Virus record (IMG/VR): IMGVR_UViG_2695420744_000004
Location: 1-13,324 of that record
From: a virus
Lineage: Duplodnaviria; Heunggongvirae; Uroviricota; Caudoviricetes
Direction: 5' to 3' (one strand)
Length of the DNA: 13,324 bases
The position numbers and the translations under genes are program-made. The notes beneath the pieces are model-generated. The model was not told where the DNA came from and searched no databases. It saw only the letters and a list, made by a program, of their open reading frames with translations. Of this stretch, positions 6-3,041 are shown piece by piece (positions within the stretch are counted from its first letter, which is position 1; every line of letters starts with the position of its first letter).

Positions 6-63
6 AAAAAGGGCGGCAGAGCAGTCACGGAGTAAAACTGATACCGCCAAACGTCACCAGAAA
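6..63 (-). ncRNA. dicF: DicF-like small RNA, 3' portion with terminator at the window edge
   Basis: The minus-strand reading of 63..1 is UUUCUGGUGACGUUUGGCGGUAUCAGUUUUACUCCGUGACUGCUCUGCCGCCCUUUUUAAAGU, which matches my recollection of the ~53-nt E. coli DicF RNA. It has GGCGG/CCGCC pairing and ends in a U-run like an intrinsic terminator. It lies at the distal end of the leftward early operon, as dicF does in Qin. Recalled, not searched. Confidence 0.6.
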
Positions 64-344: not shown

Positions 345-665
345 ATGTCGCAACCACCAATAAATCCACTTAAGAACATGAAAATTGATTACTGGTATAA
401 AGCGCTTACAGTTGTTGGCGCTGCGTTGTTTGTCTTTAATGGAACGTCTTTTTTCGACAGATATCCCGTTGTTCCATTGGGTTTTTTGTCCTCCGGCATC
501 TTTTTTATTGGTTTGGGAGAGTGGATTAACCACCCTCTCAAAGTGAGATTTATTGGTCCTGGAGTTTGGGCTCGTGGATATAACCGTTCTTCGTGCTCAC
601 TCGGTATCATCTTCGACATACTTGGTTGTTTCCTGATTGTTACAGGAGTCGTCAAGTTCTTCTGA
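345..665 (+). CDS. small integral membrane protein (about three hydrophobic helices), possibly superinfection-exclusion-like given its sieB-like position
   Basis: 106-aa ORF with three hydrophobic stretches (ALTVVGAALFVF, VVPLGFLSSGIFFIGLGEW, SLGIIFDILGCFLIVTGVV). It is on the opposite strand to the flanking leftward early genes, as sieB is in Rac. Function is inferred from position only. Confidence 0.5.
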   Translation: MSQPPINPLKNMKIDYWYKALTVVGAALFVFNGTSFFDRYPVVPLGFLSSGIFFIGLGEWINHPLKVRFIGPGVWARGYNRSSCSLGIIFDILGCFLIVTGVVKFF

Positions 666-902
666 TGTAAAACCGCAAATGGGGCACGTAACGGGAATTT
701 TGAAAAGCGTTTCTCCGGGTTCCAGAACAAAATTTTCTGCGGTCTGATTTTGCTTCTCATATTTGTGCTCCGCGTCATTGTGAGAGCACATTCTTATTCT
801 GAGTGCCTGTTTAAACTCACTGAAGCTGAGAGCTTCTTCGCCTTCGGCAAGGCCTTCGAAGTATTCTTCGTAAGCCTTTTCCATGATTGTGTCGAAATCC
901 AT
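597..902 (-). CDS. hypothetical early-left protein (101 aa, acidic N-terminus, C-terminal CPICG motif)
   Basis: ATG at 902 sits one nucleotide after the upstream gene's stop (TGAtATG) with an AGGTGA Shine-Dalgarno inside that gene's end, indicating translational coupling. The 3' end overlaps the convergent membrane-protein ORF by 69 nt. Confidence 0.45.
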   Translation of the reverse strand: MDFDTIMEKAYEEYFEGLAEGEEALSFSEFKQALRIRMCSHNDAEHKYEKQNQTAENFVLEPGETLFKIPVTCPICGFTSEELDDSCNNQETTKYVEDDTE

Positions 903-903
903 A

Positions 904-1059
904 TCACTCACCTGAGTTTCTTTCCAGCCAGCGACGGGCACCATTTTCGGTTTTAAACGTTTTGCTTTTGGTATACGTCATCGCGGTGAACGTACCGTCC
1001 TGGTTGGGGAACACGCCACATACCAGAGATTCGTTGTTGCCAAGATCGATAGTATCCAT
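904..1059 (-). CDS. small prophage early protein, YdaF/YdfA-like (51 aa)
   Basis: Internal ATG at 1059 preceded by GAGGT; product MDTIDLGNNESLVCGVFPNQDGTFTAMTYTKSKTFKTENGARRWLERNSGE. It is the first gene after the PL-like promoter. An alternative in-frame start at 1140 would give 78 aa. The family call is recalled with moderate certainty. Confidence 0.5.
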   Translation of the reverse strand: MDTIDLGNNESLVCGVFPNQDGTFTAMTYTKSKTFKTENGARRWLERNSGE

Positions 1060-1238
1060 GCTGACCTCATTTCCCCTTAACGCCGGGGTAGCGGAACAAA
1101 AACCTGCTGCATAGTTATTAAAGTTGAACCCTGCCGTCATGTTCTTACGCCTCGGGCTGGCTACTTAACCCCTGACCACTGCCTGGTAACTCGAAGTATT
1201 GCCTGGCGTTCTGTGGGGCGGGGTGGGTTGATGAAATA

Positions 1239-1279
1239 ATGATGCACTTTTAAAGTTATGATGTCAACACTTATAAAGT
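1239..1279 (-). promoter_or_regulatory. PL-like leftward promoter with two operator repeats
   Basis: On the minus strand: -35 TTGACA (1267-1262), 17-bp spacer, -10 CATCAT (1244-1239). Operator-like ACTTTTAAAGT (1246-1256) lies in the spacer and ACTTATAAAGT (1269-1279) just upstream, 23 bp apart. The first is the exact reverse complement of the site in the PR spacer (2308-2318). Confidence 0.45.
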
Positions 1280-1291
1280 TAGCTTTTGATC

Positions 1292-1319
1292 AATAAAAAC
1301 CGCCTCGTGTGAAGCGGTT
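1292..1319 (-). terminator. intrinsic terminator downstream of the parE-like gene
   Basis: Minus-strand RNA AACCGCUUC-ACAC-GAGGCGGUU followed by UUUAUUG: 9-bp stem (one G-U), 4-nt loop, U-rich tail, about 17 nt after the toxin stop. Confidence 0.6.
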
Positions 1320-1335
1320 CTGCGAAAAAAGAGGA

Positions 1336-1617
1336 TTATCCAGGAAATTGTCGTCTGGAGTGGGTGACACTTACTATTTCAACACTCGAAGCGGCTACAC
1401 GGTACAGAATGATATAGTTAGGATGAGCTACAATCTCACGCAAGCCAAACGCTCTGTCGCTTGATGGGTATAAGTACGGATGTTCAGATAAAGCTAAAAC
1501 ACATGTCTCAATGCGAATCTTTAGCCTGCGTGCGGCATGGAGATTTTCTTTTGCAATATAGGCTACGATCTGACGTAAATCATCACGTGCAGAAGGTAGC
1601 CATAAAATGGGCAGCAT
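1336..1617 (-). CDS. parE: ParE/RelE-superfamily type II toxin (93 aa)
   Basis: Small basic protein with the typical toxin size. Its start overlaps the stop of the upstream antitoxin ORF. It resembles the ParE2 toxin of the paaR2-paaA2-parE2 system described in E. coli O157 prophages (recalled). Confidence 0.8.
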   Translation of the reverse strand: MLPILWLPSARDDLRQIVAYIAKENLHAARRLKIRIETCVLALSEHPYLYPSSDRAFGLREIVAHPNYIILYRVAASSVEIVSVTHSRRQFPG

Positions 1618-1808
1618 TACACACTCCCGCTAGTCGCAGCAATTTGGGCAATGAGATTTTCCATTTCTGCCATTACATCATCATGAGGAATTGCAGGGCG
1701 CGGATCTGCAAGATTTGCAGCTACTTTTGCACGTAGCCATTCGTTGTAATTATTTTCTTGCTCAACGGTTTCAAACTCAGAAACCATCGGCGAAAGGGCA
1801 GTGTTCAT
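1617..1808 (-). CDS. paaA: PaaA-like antitoxin (63 aa)
   Basis: Start chosen at the internal ATG (1808) preceded by AGGAGG; product MNTALSPMVSEFETVEQENNYNEWLRAKVAANLADPRPAIPHDDVMAEMENLIAQIAATSGSV. Size and sequence match my recollection of the 63-aa PaaA2 antitoxin. Coupled to the downstream toxin. Confidence 0.75.
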   Translation of the reverse strand: MNTALSPMVSEFETVEQENNYNEWLRAKVAANLADPRPAIPHDDVMAEMENLIAQIAATSGSV

Positions 1809-1837
1809 AACATACCTCCTTTGGCTTATGATGTAGA

Positions 1838-2245
1838 CTATGCTCGGTGCCCTTTCTGGGCAGCGAGCCATCTTGCAACAGTGCGCTCCATTGATTCTTT
1901 TTTGTCTTTCATGTCTTTAAGCATTTTTTCTTGATCTTCCTCTGGAAATGCTCCGAATGTTTGAAGCAGTTCCATTTGCCTGGGGCCTATTTTCATAGTA
2001 TCTGGCACCACAACCTGCTCTTCTTCGTTTGGCGGTAACATAAACCAATATGGGGGATAACCCGTTACTTCAGAAAGTTTATCAAGATTAGCTGTTGATG
2101 GACTTGTGATTCCGTGAACCCACTTTTGTACCGATTGCTGGGCAACACCAATCCTGCGGGCTAGTTCTGCCTGCTTAAGTCCTGTTTTTTCCAGTACCAA
2201 TTTTATTCGGTACGTGGTTATTTCAAGGGTGGTCATTCGCTTCAT
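1838..2245 (-). CDS. paaR: HTH (XRE/CI-type) repressor, PaaR-like; first gene of the three-gene operon and in the cI position of the switch
   Basis: HTH motif GLKQAELARRIGVAQQSVQKWVHG. Divergent from the Cro-like gene across an operator-bearing 107-bp region. There is no obvious S24 peptidase domain (135 aa only). The first codon lies about 7 nt downstream of a TAAAAT -10, suggesting a leaderless mRNA. Confidence 0.7.
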   Translation of the reverse strand: MKRMTTLEITTYRIKLVLEKTGLKQAELARRIGVAQQSVQKWVHGITSPSTANLDKLSEVTGYPPYWFMLPPNEEEQVVVPDTMKIGPRQMELLQTFGAFPEEDQEKMLKDMKDKKESMERTVARWLAAQKGHRA

Positions 2246-2352
2246 GCATTCATTTTACATAAAAAAAGTGTAACTAGCACAATCAGCTTAAAGGTGTTGA
2301 TAAACTAACTTTAAAAGTGTATAAATCATGGTGATTCACTGGAGATAACGAT
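2246..2352. promoter_or_regulatory. divergent promoter/operator region (PR-like, and a PRM-like promoter for the repressor)
   Basis: Plus strand: -35 TTGATA (2297-2302), 17-bp spacer, -10 TATAAA (2320-2325) preceded by TG, and GGAGA Shine-Dalgarno 8 nt before ATG 2353. Three AAAG(G)TGT repeats at about 2265, 2290 and 2313, roughly 23-25 bp apart (OR1-3 analogues). Minus strand: TAAAAT at 2257-2252. Confidence 0.6.
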
Positions 2353-2619
2353 ATGCATGAATGTTTAAAAAATAAAATTCACCAAAGAGGGTTATCCCAA
2401 GCAGGTATTGCTCGTTTGATTGGATTACCGCAACAGGTTGTGTCTCGATGGGCTAATGGTCAGCAGGTCCCTGCATCAAGGGTTCTGCAACTTTGTGAGA
2501 TTATGGCGTGGGAGGTTACCCCACACGAACTCCGACCTGATATTTATCCTAACCCAACAGACGGCTTGCCTGCTGAGTTTCAGACTAGCACACAGCCAGC
2601 GACGGGAGTTGATTCATGA
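2353..2619 (+). CDS. ydaS: YdaS-family Cro-like HTH regulator
   Basis: HTH motif SQAGIARLIGLPQQVVSRWANG. Divergent from the repressor and overlaps the downstream ydaT-like start (ATGA). Confidence 0.75.
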   Translation: MHECLKNKIHQRGLSQAGIARLIGLPQQVVSRWANGQQVPASRVLQLCEIMAWEVTPHELRPDIYPNPTDGLPAEFQTSTQPATGVDS

Positions 2620-3041
2620 AAATCAAGCATGAGCACATCCGCATGGCGATGAATGCCTGGGCATATCCTGACGGTGAGAAGGTGCCAGCTGCTGCTATTG
2701 CCAGAGCGTATTTTGAACTGGGGATGACATATCCCGAGTTGCACAACGACGACAGGCACAACGCGCTCTATCTCAACACCCAAAAGATTTTCCGTTGGCT
2801 GGATAAAGACACTCCTGATGCTGTTGAGAAAATTCAGGCATTGTTACCGGCGATCGAAAGGGCAATGCCACCTCCGCTGGTAGCCCGAATGCGCAGCCAC
2901 AGTTCCGCTTATTTTCGGGAGCTGGTGGAGACGCAGGAACGGCTAGTGAAAGATATCGATGATTTCGTTGCATCAGCGATCGTTCTGTTCGACCAGATGA
3001 ATCGTGGTGGTCCTGCGGGTAATTCCGTGGCTGTGCATTGA
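2616..3041 (+). CDS. ydaT: YdaT-family protein (CII-like regulator analogue)
   Basis: 141-aa protein translationally coupled to the ydaS-like gene; synteny with Rac ydaS-ydaT. Family recalled, not searched. Confidence 0.7.
   Translation: MKIKHEHIRMAMNAWAYPDGEKVPAAAIARAYFELGMTYPELHNDDRHNALYLNTQKIFRWLDKDTPDAVEKIQALLPAIERAMPPPLVARMRSHSSAYFRELVETQERLVKDIDDFVASAIVLFDQMNRGGPAGNSVAVH

Follow-up and report, generated by a model that had tools for sequence, protein, structure and literature searches.

Within the window, the whole stretch of 13,324 nucleotides that was analysed, all five open reading frames that an earlier note had placed in this part of the DNA were found intact. On the minus strand these encode a repressor (1838..2245), an antitoxin (1617..1808) and a toxin (1336..1617); ydaS (2353..2619) and ydaT (2616..3041) lie divergently on the plus strand, and an operator region of 107 bp separates the two operons. 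Sequence searches confirmed each component of the proposed arrangement, in which repressor, antitoxin and ParE form an operon at the position of cI, divergent from the genes of YdaS (Cro-like) and YdaT (CII-like), and the domain and structure match scores of the gene products were far beyond chance expectation. Two further parts of the switch, the terminator after parE and OL/PL, lie outside the coordinates considered by the note. The features are the following.

1239..1281, minus strand: OL/PL region, with PL reading TTGACA (1267-1262), 17 nt, CATCAT (1244-1239); from the promoter scan, repeats D5, I1 and I2 and a pattern search.
~1290..1325, minus strand: intrinsic terminator of the repressor-paaA-parE operon, stem 1298-1319 followed by a U-tract (-15.5 kcal/mol).
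1336..1617, minus strand: parE, a ParE-family toxin of 93 aa (Pfam PF05016, ParE_toxin, 3.6e-16; PDB ParE2, 5cw7_B, 2e-36).
1617..1808, minus strand: paaA, a PaaA2-family antitoxin of 63 aa (Pfam PF21217, PaaA2, 3.3e-20; PDB PaaA2, 3zbe_A, 4e-23; NCBIfam NF050103, 2.6e-25).
1809..1837, minus strand: repressor-paaA spacer of 29 nt with the Shine-Dalgarno sequence AGGAGG at 1813-1818, read from the sequence.
1838..2245, minus strand: PaaR-like prophage repressor of 135 aa (HTH_3, 5.6e-14, residues 14-68).
2252..2257, minus strand: putative -10 hexamer of PRM, TAAAAT, located 6 nt before the repressor ATG, which lacks a Shine-Dalgarno sequence.
2257..2319: OR with three putative operators, OR3 (2257-2270), OR2 (2283-2296) and OR1 (2306-2319), from repeats and a pattern search.
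2297..2325, plus strand: putative PR, TTGATA (2297-2302), 17 nt, TATAAA (2320-2325), read from the sequence.
2353..2619, plus strand: ydaS, a Cro-like regulator of 88 aa (Pfam YdaS family, 1.3e-10; PDB Cro 3bd1, 2e-4).
2609..2626, plus strand: YdaT operator box TTGATTcatgaaAATCAA (TTGATTN6AATCAA) at the ydaS/ydaT junction, site OM of the PRE region, an exact match.
2616..3041, plus strand: ydaT, a CII-like regulator of 141 aa (Pfam PF06254; PDB 8bt1, the YdaT of CP-933P, 2.3e-74).

The similarity of the 1336..1617 product to the ParE/RelE folds, on which the earlier note had staked its reading, is thus present in both the Pfam and the PDB match. For the antitoxin the PaaA2 family was the sole Pfam match; the protein has no DNA-binding domain, and the Pfam search revealed neither an RHH nor a ParD domain. 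The canonical ParD of the RK2/Vibrio type, in contrast, carries an N-terminal ribbon-helix-helix DNA-binding domain and autoregulates its operon. A canonical two-gene parDE system was consequently rejected on domain content, regulation here coming from a separate HTH gene. PADLOC returned no defence-system model match for ParE or PaaA.

The stop codon of paaA overlaps the start codon of parE by one base (TAATG, 1615-1619). Between the stop codon of the repressor gene (1838) and the start of paaA (1808) lie 29 nt, and translational coupling is therefore limited to the antitoxin-toxin junction; the three-gene coupling that had been claimed holds for paaA/parE and fails for repressor/paaA. This gap measures 17-30 nt in all repressor classes surveyed. 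Coupling of the repressor gene to paaA through an RNA structure that hides the paaA Shine-Dalgarno sequence was considered and rejected, since the local fold is only marginal (z -2.3) and the types do not share its base pairs. At its 3' end the repressor gene has a GC-rich hairpin, which is strong in most types bearing the toxin-antitoxin pair and weaker in types without it; the GCN/CGN codons that encode the conserved WLAAQKGRRA tail can account for this hairpin. The promoter scan found no promoter-like site on the minus strand inside 1808-2245. The fold of the terminator after parE has a z of -3.96, and none of 200 shuffled sequences folded as well.

The repressor combines an N-terminal Cro/C1 HTH with a conserved C-terminal domain of ~55 aa. 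RefSeq places its start at 2236, giving 132 aa; the start at 2245 is the better fit to the conserved leaderless geometry of a -10 hexamer, 6 nt and the ATG. The sole significant alignment with PaaR2 covers the C-terminal 61 aa (49% identity, 1e-18). No Peptidase_S24 domain was matched in the repressor by Pfam, and membership in the lambda CI/LexA-like (S24) group was rejected on domain content, the C-terminal half matching PaaR2 instead. Without an S24 autocleavage domain, RecA-mediated induction is not expected. Similarity to the 434 and P22 repressors is restricted to the HTH. The NCBIfam DicA model (PRK09706) aligned with residues 12-131 over model positions 8-130 of 135 (1.1e-15), scoring 57.6 bits against a curated cut-off of 101; judged by this alignment, the repressor is a distant relative of DicA and not a DicA member at the curated threshold. 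PADLOC matches of the repressor were to generic HTH models only, and a scan of species-representative genomes with back-translated repressor patterns gave no match, the patterns being probably too specific.

PRM has no convincing -35 element. The layout of its -10 hexamer, 6 nt before the ATG, recurs in the loci L002, L005 and L003, the last of which carries a PaaR2-type repressor, and a paaR2-type repressor has been found leaderless by experiment (PMC8630535). The repressor mRNA made from the weak PRM is therefore probably leaderless as well. In OR, OR3 abuts the PRM -10, OR2 abuts the PR -35, and OR1 lies in the PR spacer abutting the -10; the sites are spaced by 23 and 26 bp. The degenerate sites OR2 and OR3 were picked by eye, each starting with CACYTTT. 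The putative PR would drive ydaS-ydaT and the replication genes and was missed by the consensus scanner because the last base of its -10 is A.

The same geometry was observed at PL, where OL1 (1245-1258) lies in the spacer abutting the -10 and OL2 (1268-1281) abuts the -35, as OR1 and OR2 do at PR. A 35-nt inverted repeat with arms at 1242-1276 and 2288-2322 connects OR and OL. The 14-mer operator occurs at 1245, 1268 and 2306, with an exact 14-mer common to OL1 and OR1, and the operator sequence of the window is predicted to be CACTTTTAAAGTTA. Identity between the repressor and PaaR2 is just 33%, and only their C-terminal domains are homologous; the OR and OL sites were therefore predicted as repressor operators from repeat geometry alone. 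Predicted operator copies thus sit at PR and at PL beyond parE, and therefore the toxin-antitoxin pair lies between OR and OL. In lambda this slot is held by rexAB.

On the other side of OR, YdaT is 79-85% identical to that of other alleles. Its box, a motif defined by footprinting (PMC9986795), is the single exact match in the window, where 0.07 would be expected by chance, and the box together with the ~45 nt after it is invariant in five immunity types. The Pfam family names YdaS_toxin and YdaT_toxin might suggest that YdaS and YdaT themselves form a toxin-antitoxin pair. However, both proteins have been described as non-toxic DNA-binding regulators, analogues of Cro and CII (PMC8630535, PMC9986795), and the YdaT of the window is 79% identical to the type-2 allele, itself a match to the crystallised regulator 8bt1, and has its DNA box present. 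This pair was rejected on the literature, and its probability is negligible.

The closest known allele is the second EDL933 locus (L002, type-1) and not paaR2; by elimination, L002 is the CP-933M homologue mentioned in PMC8630535. Identities to the window are 86% for ParE, 78% for PaaA, 85% for YdaT, 65% for the repressor and 48% for YdaS. Both loci have the same gene order, TAATG overlap, repressor-paaA gap of 25-30 nt, ydaS-ydaT partner and leaderless geometry, and both are flanked by ydfA/DUF1391 on the left and by replication genes on the right. Their operators, in contrast, are unlike in sequence (ACAGTTTTTTATTGT in L002, CACTTTTAAAGTTA in the window), and therefore the two should be heteroimmune.

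The paaR2-paaA2-parE2 / ydaS-ydaT module of the cryptic prophage CP-933P (type-2) has been described previously (Hallez 2010; Jurenas 2021, PMC8630535), including the structure of YdaT (PMC9986795). Comparison with PaaR2, PaaA2 and ParE2, the check proposed in the earlier note, gave identities of 68% for ParE (over 92 aa), 65% for PaaA and 33% for the repressor; those of YdaT and YdaS are 79% and 31%. The toxin, the antitoxin and YdaT are each 65-80% identical to a protein of solved structure. CP-933P shares the repressor in the cI position heading an antitoxin-ParE operon, the divergent Cro-like and CII-like genes, OR, OL/PL and the YdaT box. It differs in that the N-terminal DNA-binding half of PaaR2 has no significant similarity to the window repressor, in its operator consensus (GTTTAGTAA), in the C-terminal tail of PaaA, and in that paaA2 and parE2 do not overlap (offset +1).

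Lambda (PRM-cI-rexA-rexB-terminator, OL/PL, OR/PR, cro, cII) follows the same logic and layout as the window. Common to both are a repressor gene that is leaderless, in the window probably so, an OR whose three sites overlap PR and PRM at intervals of ~23-26 bp, OL beyond cargo expressed in the lysogen and, where cro meets cII, a site for a CII-type activator. The two differ in cargo, rexAB versus the toxin-antitoxin pair, and show no sequence similarity past the HTH. The DicA repressor of the Qin prophage in E. coli K-12 aligns weakly over the full length of the window repressor (30% identity), and the left-hand neighbours of DicA/DicC are the same as in the window: ydfA, ydfB, dicF and dicB. 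In Qin, however, no toxin-antitoxin pair intervenes between dicA and the ydfA promoter region, which comes directly after dicA.

Taken together, we assign the region, with a probability of about 0.88, as a paaR-paaA-parE / ydaS-ydaT immunity region in a lambda-like prophage of E. coli. The same module has been described for cryptic prophages of E. coli O157:H7 (Jurenas 2021, PMC8630535; Prolic-Kalinsek 2023, PMC9986795). The note had suggested that this is the paaR2-paaA2-parE2 architecture, probably known rather than new, and the literature bears this out for both architecture and regulation. The locus is an allele of an already published design: intact, real and ordinary.

The module is widespread. 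Among 5,426 complete E. coli genomes, 841 carry homologues of the toxin-antitoxin pair. In IMG/VR, 154 viral contigs with a related ParE were found; the 80 of these that were examined keep the layout without exception, each encoding PaaA, a divergent YdaS and a repressor that bears the conserved C-terminal domain, and in most cases YdaT too. The block of repressor C-terminal domain, PaaA and ParE is paired with at least six repressor classes that differ in their DNA-binding halves, operators and YdaS partners. Repressor homologues of 61-80% identity were also found in the cI position with ydaS and ydaT and without any toxin-antitoxin pair, and the same slot in close homologues holds other unrelated small genes. 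One of these slot genes shows a weak match, just below the Pfam cut-off, to EACC1 (conflict-system).

Because close repressor homologues carry other genes there, the slot is variable and the toxin-antitoxin pair is its cargo here. The switch is therefore an ordinary lambdoid/DicA-type switch and not one built around the pair, as the note had put it. These data also bear on whether the repressor could be a dedicated third toxin-antitoxin component, the DNA-binding module of a split antitoxin, rather than a lysogeny repressor. Such a role would agree with a PaaA devoid of a DNA-binding domain and with a repressor C-terminal domain that travels with PaaA-ParE through at least six repressor classes, but the 61-80% identical homologues keep the cI position beside ydaS and ydaT with no pair to serve, the predicted operators sit at the phage promoters PR and PL, and PaaR2 was likewise judged a lysogeny repressor (PMC8630535). 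We regard this role as very improbable.

Compatible with the assignment as an immunity region, paaA-parE might act mainly as anti-phage cargo (abortive infection or superinfection exclusion) expressed in the lysogen like lambda rexAB. In position, between the repressor gene and OL, the pair corresponds to rexAB, and a slot filled with unrelated small genes in close homologues, one of them with the weak EACC1 match, is the typical pattern of a defence hot spot. However, PADLOC recognised neither protein as a defence component, the phenotypes published for the homologues are limited to SOS induction and post-segregational stabilisation (PMC8630535), and phage-challenge data were not found. A mainly anti-phage function is thus unlikely, though less so than the split-antitoxin role.

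In 8 complete genomes the region recurs at 99.8-100% identity. In NZ_AP045820.1 the host prophage, located between potB and potC, is a lambdoid element that is nearly complete. No tRNA was detected by ARAGORN anywhere in the window, and the cluster of tRNAs in the closest complete genome therefore lies outside the window or is absent. That the module is an inactive remnant with non-functional ORFs in a decaying prophage might be argued from the cryptic prophages of the model systems and from the occurrence of this ParE family in only 1 of 50,697 phage records. The five ORFs are intact, however, and dN/dS values of 0.05-0.09 for paaA and parE against related alleles reveal purifying selection; the near-identity in 8 genomes, the near-complete lambdoid gene set of the host prophage and a type-2 module in the isolated phage Evi argue in the same direction. 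Such a remnant is very improbable.

As an immunity region, the locus would operate as follows. The 135-aa HTH repressor, an analogue of CI and DicA made from the weak PRM, would bind CACTTTTAAAGTTA-like operators at OR and OL and thereby shut off PR (ydaS, ydaT and the replication genes) and PL (the ydfA ... dicF/dicB side). YdaS would compete for the DNA sites of the repressor, and YdaT would bind its TTGATTN6AATCAA box and activate a leftward PRE-type promoter. The paaA-parE pair, for which no promoter of its own was detected, would be co-transcribed behind the repressor gene up to the terminator just before OL. A labile PaaA and a stable ParE would make the immunity region addictive: a cell losing or replacing the region would stop PaaA synthesis and be poisoned by ParE. 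For the window, toxicity, a protease-labile antitoxin, repressor binding, the leaderless start, bistability and addiction are expected by analogy with published homologues. ParE toxicity, its neutralisation by PaaA, the Clp-labile antitoxin, addiction and the bistable switch are known only for the CP-933P system (PMC8630535); for the window, the purifying selection on paaA and parE supports them indirectly. ParE2 activity was undetected there in either transcriptional state (PMC8630535), so that a role of the pair beyond plasmid-type addiction is unproven even in the model system.

Since design and regulation are already published for O157:H7 prophages, the importance of the locus is modest. 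It would be a heteroimmune additional member of the published PaaR-type immunity modules, documenting one more immunity specificity, whose operator layout is clean and predictable. As the prophage appears nearly complete, ParE release on induction or on immunity replacement could be tested there, which is harder in the cryptic CP-933P. Tentatively, and with a probability clearly below even, the window may carry a heteroimmune immunity type of the PaaR family, with a new operator and a DicA-like N-terminal domain; the complete-genome prophage closest to it looks nearly intact. If the combination of one conserved block with at least six DNA-binding halves is real, the toxin-antitoxin pair would persist while immunity specificities swap around it. 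Nature would then supply evidence for a published idea, namely that the pair polices recombination within the immunity region, and the allele would offer a probably inducible system in which to test that proposal.

The immunity region consists of a minus-strand operon of three genes, separated by a 107-bp gap from the plus-strand genes ydaS and ydaT:

1336..1617, minus strand, parE toxin gene, 93 aa (Pfam ParE_toxin 3.6e-16; PDB ParE2 of E. coli O157, 5cw7_B, 2e-36)
1617..1808, minus strand, paaA antitoxin gene, 63 aa, AGGAGG upstream (Pfam PaaA2 3.3e-20; PDB PaaA2, 3zbe_A, 4e-23)
1838..2245, minus strand, repressor gene, 135 aa (HTH_3 at residues 14-68)
2353..2619, plus strand, ydaS, 88 aa (YdaS family 1.3e-10)
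2616..3041, plus strand, ydaT, 141 aa (YdaT family; CP-933P YdaT crystal structure, 8bt1, 2.3e-74)
from 3107, downstream of ydaT, DnaT/O-like replication gene

These coordinates and family matches agree with the earlier note, which had described a repressor, a 63-aa antitoxin and a ParE-family toxin encoded divergently from YdaS and YdaT; both the ParE fold and PaaA2 were recovered in the protein searches. The translational coupling postulated for the whole operon holds for the antitoxin-toxin junction, where the paaA stop and parE start have one base in common (TAATG), but not for repressor and paaA, which lie 29 nt apart. The ydaS and ydaT genes overlap by ATGA. In the PDB search YdaS showed weak similarity to a solved Cro. 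The similarity of the repressor to the 434 and P22 repressors was confined to the HTH, and profile and structure-database searches of the repressor revealed no S24 peptidase domain.

The earlier note took the architecture as probably known from O157:H7 cryptic prophages, and it was indeed described for paaR2-paaA2-parE2 of CP-933P by Jurenas et al. 2021 (PMC8630535). There, PaaR2 is a leaderless CI analogue that competes with the Cro-like YdaS at OR, and both proteins act as repressors at a further promoter, PL, located past parE2. The CII-like YdaT switches on PRE, a promoter lying between ydaS and ydaT, and the locus as a whole is bistable. Plasmids are stabilised by the toxin-antitoxin pair, but neither state showed ParE2 activity. 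CP-933M carries a homologue of the system (PMC8630535). Published work refutes the alternative that YdaS and YdaT are themselves toxin and antitoxin.

Two ATG codons compete as repressor start. RefSeq/PGAP uses the second, at 2236 (132 aa; L001 14639-15037), whereas the first reading used the ATG at 2245. The latter lies exactly 6 nt past a TAAAAT hexamer and lacks a Shine-Dalgarno sequence. Because this arrangement of -10, 6 nt and ATG is conserved in every related locus examined, including the PaaR2-type locus, whose repressor is leaderless by 5' RACE and N-terminal sequencing (PMC8630535), the first ATG is favoured. The last ~15 codons of the gene (1838-1880, minus strand) form a GC-rich hairpin, GGCUCGCUGCCC-AGAAA-GGGCACCGAGC. 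Most types with the toxin-antitoxin pair have a hairpin at the same position with different stem sequences; it is weaker in homologues without the pair. It could set the ratio of repressor to toxin-antitoxin mRNA, or could be a by-product of Ala/Arg codons in the conserved WLAAQKGRRA tail.

A predicted operator core, the 14-mer CACTTTTAAAGTTA, was used for a pattern search of the window. Together with promoter and terminator predictions the following elements were obtained:

2306-2319, minus strand, predicted operator copy OR1
2283-2296, putative OR2, degenerate
2257-2270, putative third site, degenerate, abutting the putative PRM -10
1245-1258, predicted operator copy OL1
1268-1281, predicted operator copy OL2, one mismatch
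2297-2325, plus strand, putative PR read by eye (TTGATA 2297-2302, 17 nt, TATAAA 2320-2325)
1267-1239, leftward, putative PL from a promoter scan (TTGACA 1267-1262, 17 nt, CATCAT 1244-1239)
after parE, intrinsic terminator (-15.5 kcal/mol, z -3.96)
2609-2626, ydaS/ydaT junction, YdaT motif TTGATTN6AATCAA, one exact match (0.07 expected)

With a further match at 6849-6862 (three mismatches), the 14-mer occurs four times in the window versus 1.16 expected by chance. The three closer copies belong to 35-nt inverted arms (1242-1276 and 2288-2322) which flank the entire operon. OR1 occupies the PR spacer adjoining the -10 and OR2 abuts the -35; OL1 and OL2 take the matching positions at PL. From these positions and the terminator, the minus-strand order is PRM, repressor, paaA, parE, terminator, OL/PL and ydfA, which mirrors PRM-cI-rexA-rexB-terminator-OL/PL of lambda. 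The promoter scan detected no minus-strand promoter-like site inside the repressor gene. Five immunity types share the YdaT box and the ~45 nt after it without change, including types whose YdaT is only ~50% identical, and this fits the published PRE/OM region (YdaT box defined by Prolic-Kalinsek et al. 2023, PMC9986795). A PL leader of ~100 nt, CAACCCACCCCGCCCCACAGAACGC...GCCCGAGGCGTAAGAAC (~1141-1232, minus strand), separates PL from the ydfA-like gene and is almost invariant in five prophages with differing operators and repressors. It is absent from Qin, which shares just the final ~40 nt ahead of ydfA. The leader may act as an antitermination element of the nut/put type or may simply be an immunity-region recombination boundary.

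The allele was compared with the second EDL933 locus (L002) and the PaaR2-type locus (L003, from ST131). Respective identities are 86% and 68% for ParE, 78% and 65% for PaaA, 65% and 33% for the repressor, 48% and 31% for YdaS, and 85% and 79% for YdaT. L003 has a ParE 100% identical to the crystallised protein ParE2 and a repressor with the published N terminus MQKKE. L002 is assigned to CP-933M by elimination: EDL933 has just two places of this kind, and the ParE of L002 differs from ParE2. The repressor search against PaaR2 proposed earlier gave a single significant alignment, limited to the C-terminal 61 aa (49% identity, 1e-18). Operator sequences are unrelated among the three types, which points to a distinct immunity specificity. 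As far as sequence can tell, the window carries an uncharacterised heteroimmune allele of an already published architecture, with its own predicted operator. The full-length repressor aligns with Qin DicA (30% identity); its NCBIfam match, at 1.1e-15, scores under the curated cut-off. Qin has ydfA and DicF on the left flank as well, but there ydfA directly follows dicA. In the window the DicF small RNA lies at 11-62 (minus strand; Rfam RF00039, 76.7 bits, E 7.5e-16), on the PL side as in K-12 Qin.

PaaA-ParE follows the repressor homologues of Salmonella (95% identical to the window's) and E. coli type 1 (67%). Unrelated ORFs follow those of a metagenome-assembled genome (80%; 118 and 159 aa), another Salmonella (73%; weak EACC1 match), Raoultella (62%) and Pluralibacter (61%). 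Thus, the region is a standard lambdoid/DicA-type switch, and the pair is lysogen-expressed cargo in the repressor-to-OL slot whose transcription would depend on PRM. Homologues that lack the pair speak against a repressor serving toxin and antitoxin alone. The switch is not built around the pair, as the earlier note had it, since slot content varies. The unrelated slot ORFs (L006/L007 3553-3915, L009 3530-3931, L012 3550-4008, L014 3024-3852) encode 112-159 aa; the EACC1 (conflict-system) match in Salmonella is at 1e-4, just under the Pfam cut-off. The slot is a possible hot spot for cargo expressed in lysogens. A rexAB-like defence role of the pair is possible but unsupported, with no PADLOC match.

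Each of the 80 IMG/VR loci examined, of 154 found with a related ParE, also encodes PaaA, a divergent YdaS and a repressor that has the conserved C-terminal domain. At least six classes can be told apart among these repressors, with N-terminal halves 18-55% and C-terminal 55 aa 50-80% identical to the window's. Against L017, the Salmonella locus with the 95% identical repressor, the toxin and antitoxin genes have clearly diverged further than the repressor gene (pN ~0.08-0.09 versus 0.02). With dN/dS of 0.05-0.09, paaA and parE are under strong purifying selection; this and the intact ORFs contradict a dead remnant. Gene identities, layout and selection are observed for the window allele itself.

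Of 5,426 complete E. coli genomes, 841 contain toxin-antitoxin homologues. This allele (≥99% identity) is present in only 11 records and the 2-kb region at 99.8-100% identity in eight genomes. The module of strain 23CRST047 (NZ_AP045820.1) is part of a lambdoid prophage of ~47 kb that lies between potB and potC; it has genes for integrase, exonuclease, replication, lysis, head and tail, and its pseudogenes are few. Only 87% of the window aligns to this genome, the closest complete one, at 99.1% identity; the window thus derives from a related, not identical, prophage. Among 50,697 phage records one, Escherichia phage Evi, contains this ParE family (PaaR2 type). Evi is an isolated temperate phage. 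Its parE2-type gene (L019 2501-2776; LR597642.1 24917-25192) is unannotated in GenBank, and the paaA-like gene is labelled hypothetical.

Further features were noted nearby. The sok antisense RNA (RF01794) is matched over its full length at two places (8348-8523, plus strand, 112 bits; 10083-10258, plus strand, 120 bits), which indicates two hok/sok type I toxin-antitoxin loci; the collinear part of NZ_AP045820.1 has only one annotated hokD. At 904-1140 (minus strand) a ydfA-like DUF1391 gene (51 aa, from 1059, in RefSeq) forms one reading frame with an upstream ORF of 27 codons, which in EDL933 ends at TAA before ydfA through a one-base C-run difference. Between DicF and ydfB (345-944) two overlapping ORFs without Pfam match were found, where NZ_AP045820.1 has no annotated gene:

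345-665, plus strand, 106 aa, hydrophobic
597-944, minus strand, 115 aa

The published mechanism applied to the window allele is the best explanation, to which we give nearly nine chances in ten. By analogy with the homologues, from which leaderless start and toxicity are likewise carried over as expectations, the repressor would bind OR and OL, YdaS would compete for these sites and YdaT would activate a PRE-type promoter. Co-transcribed with the repressor, PaaA-ParE would make the immunity region addictive.
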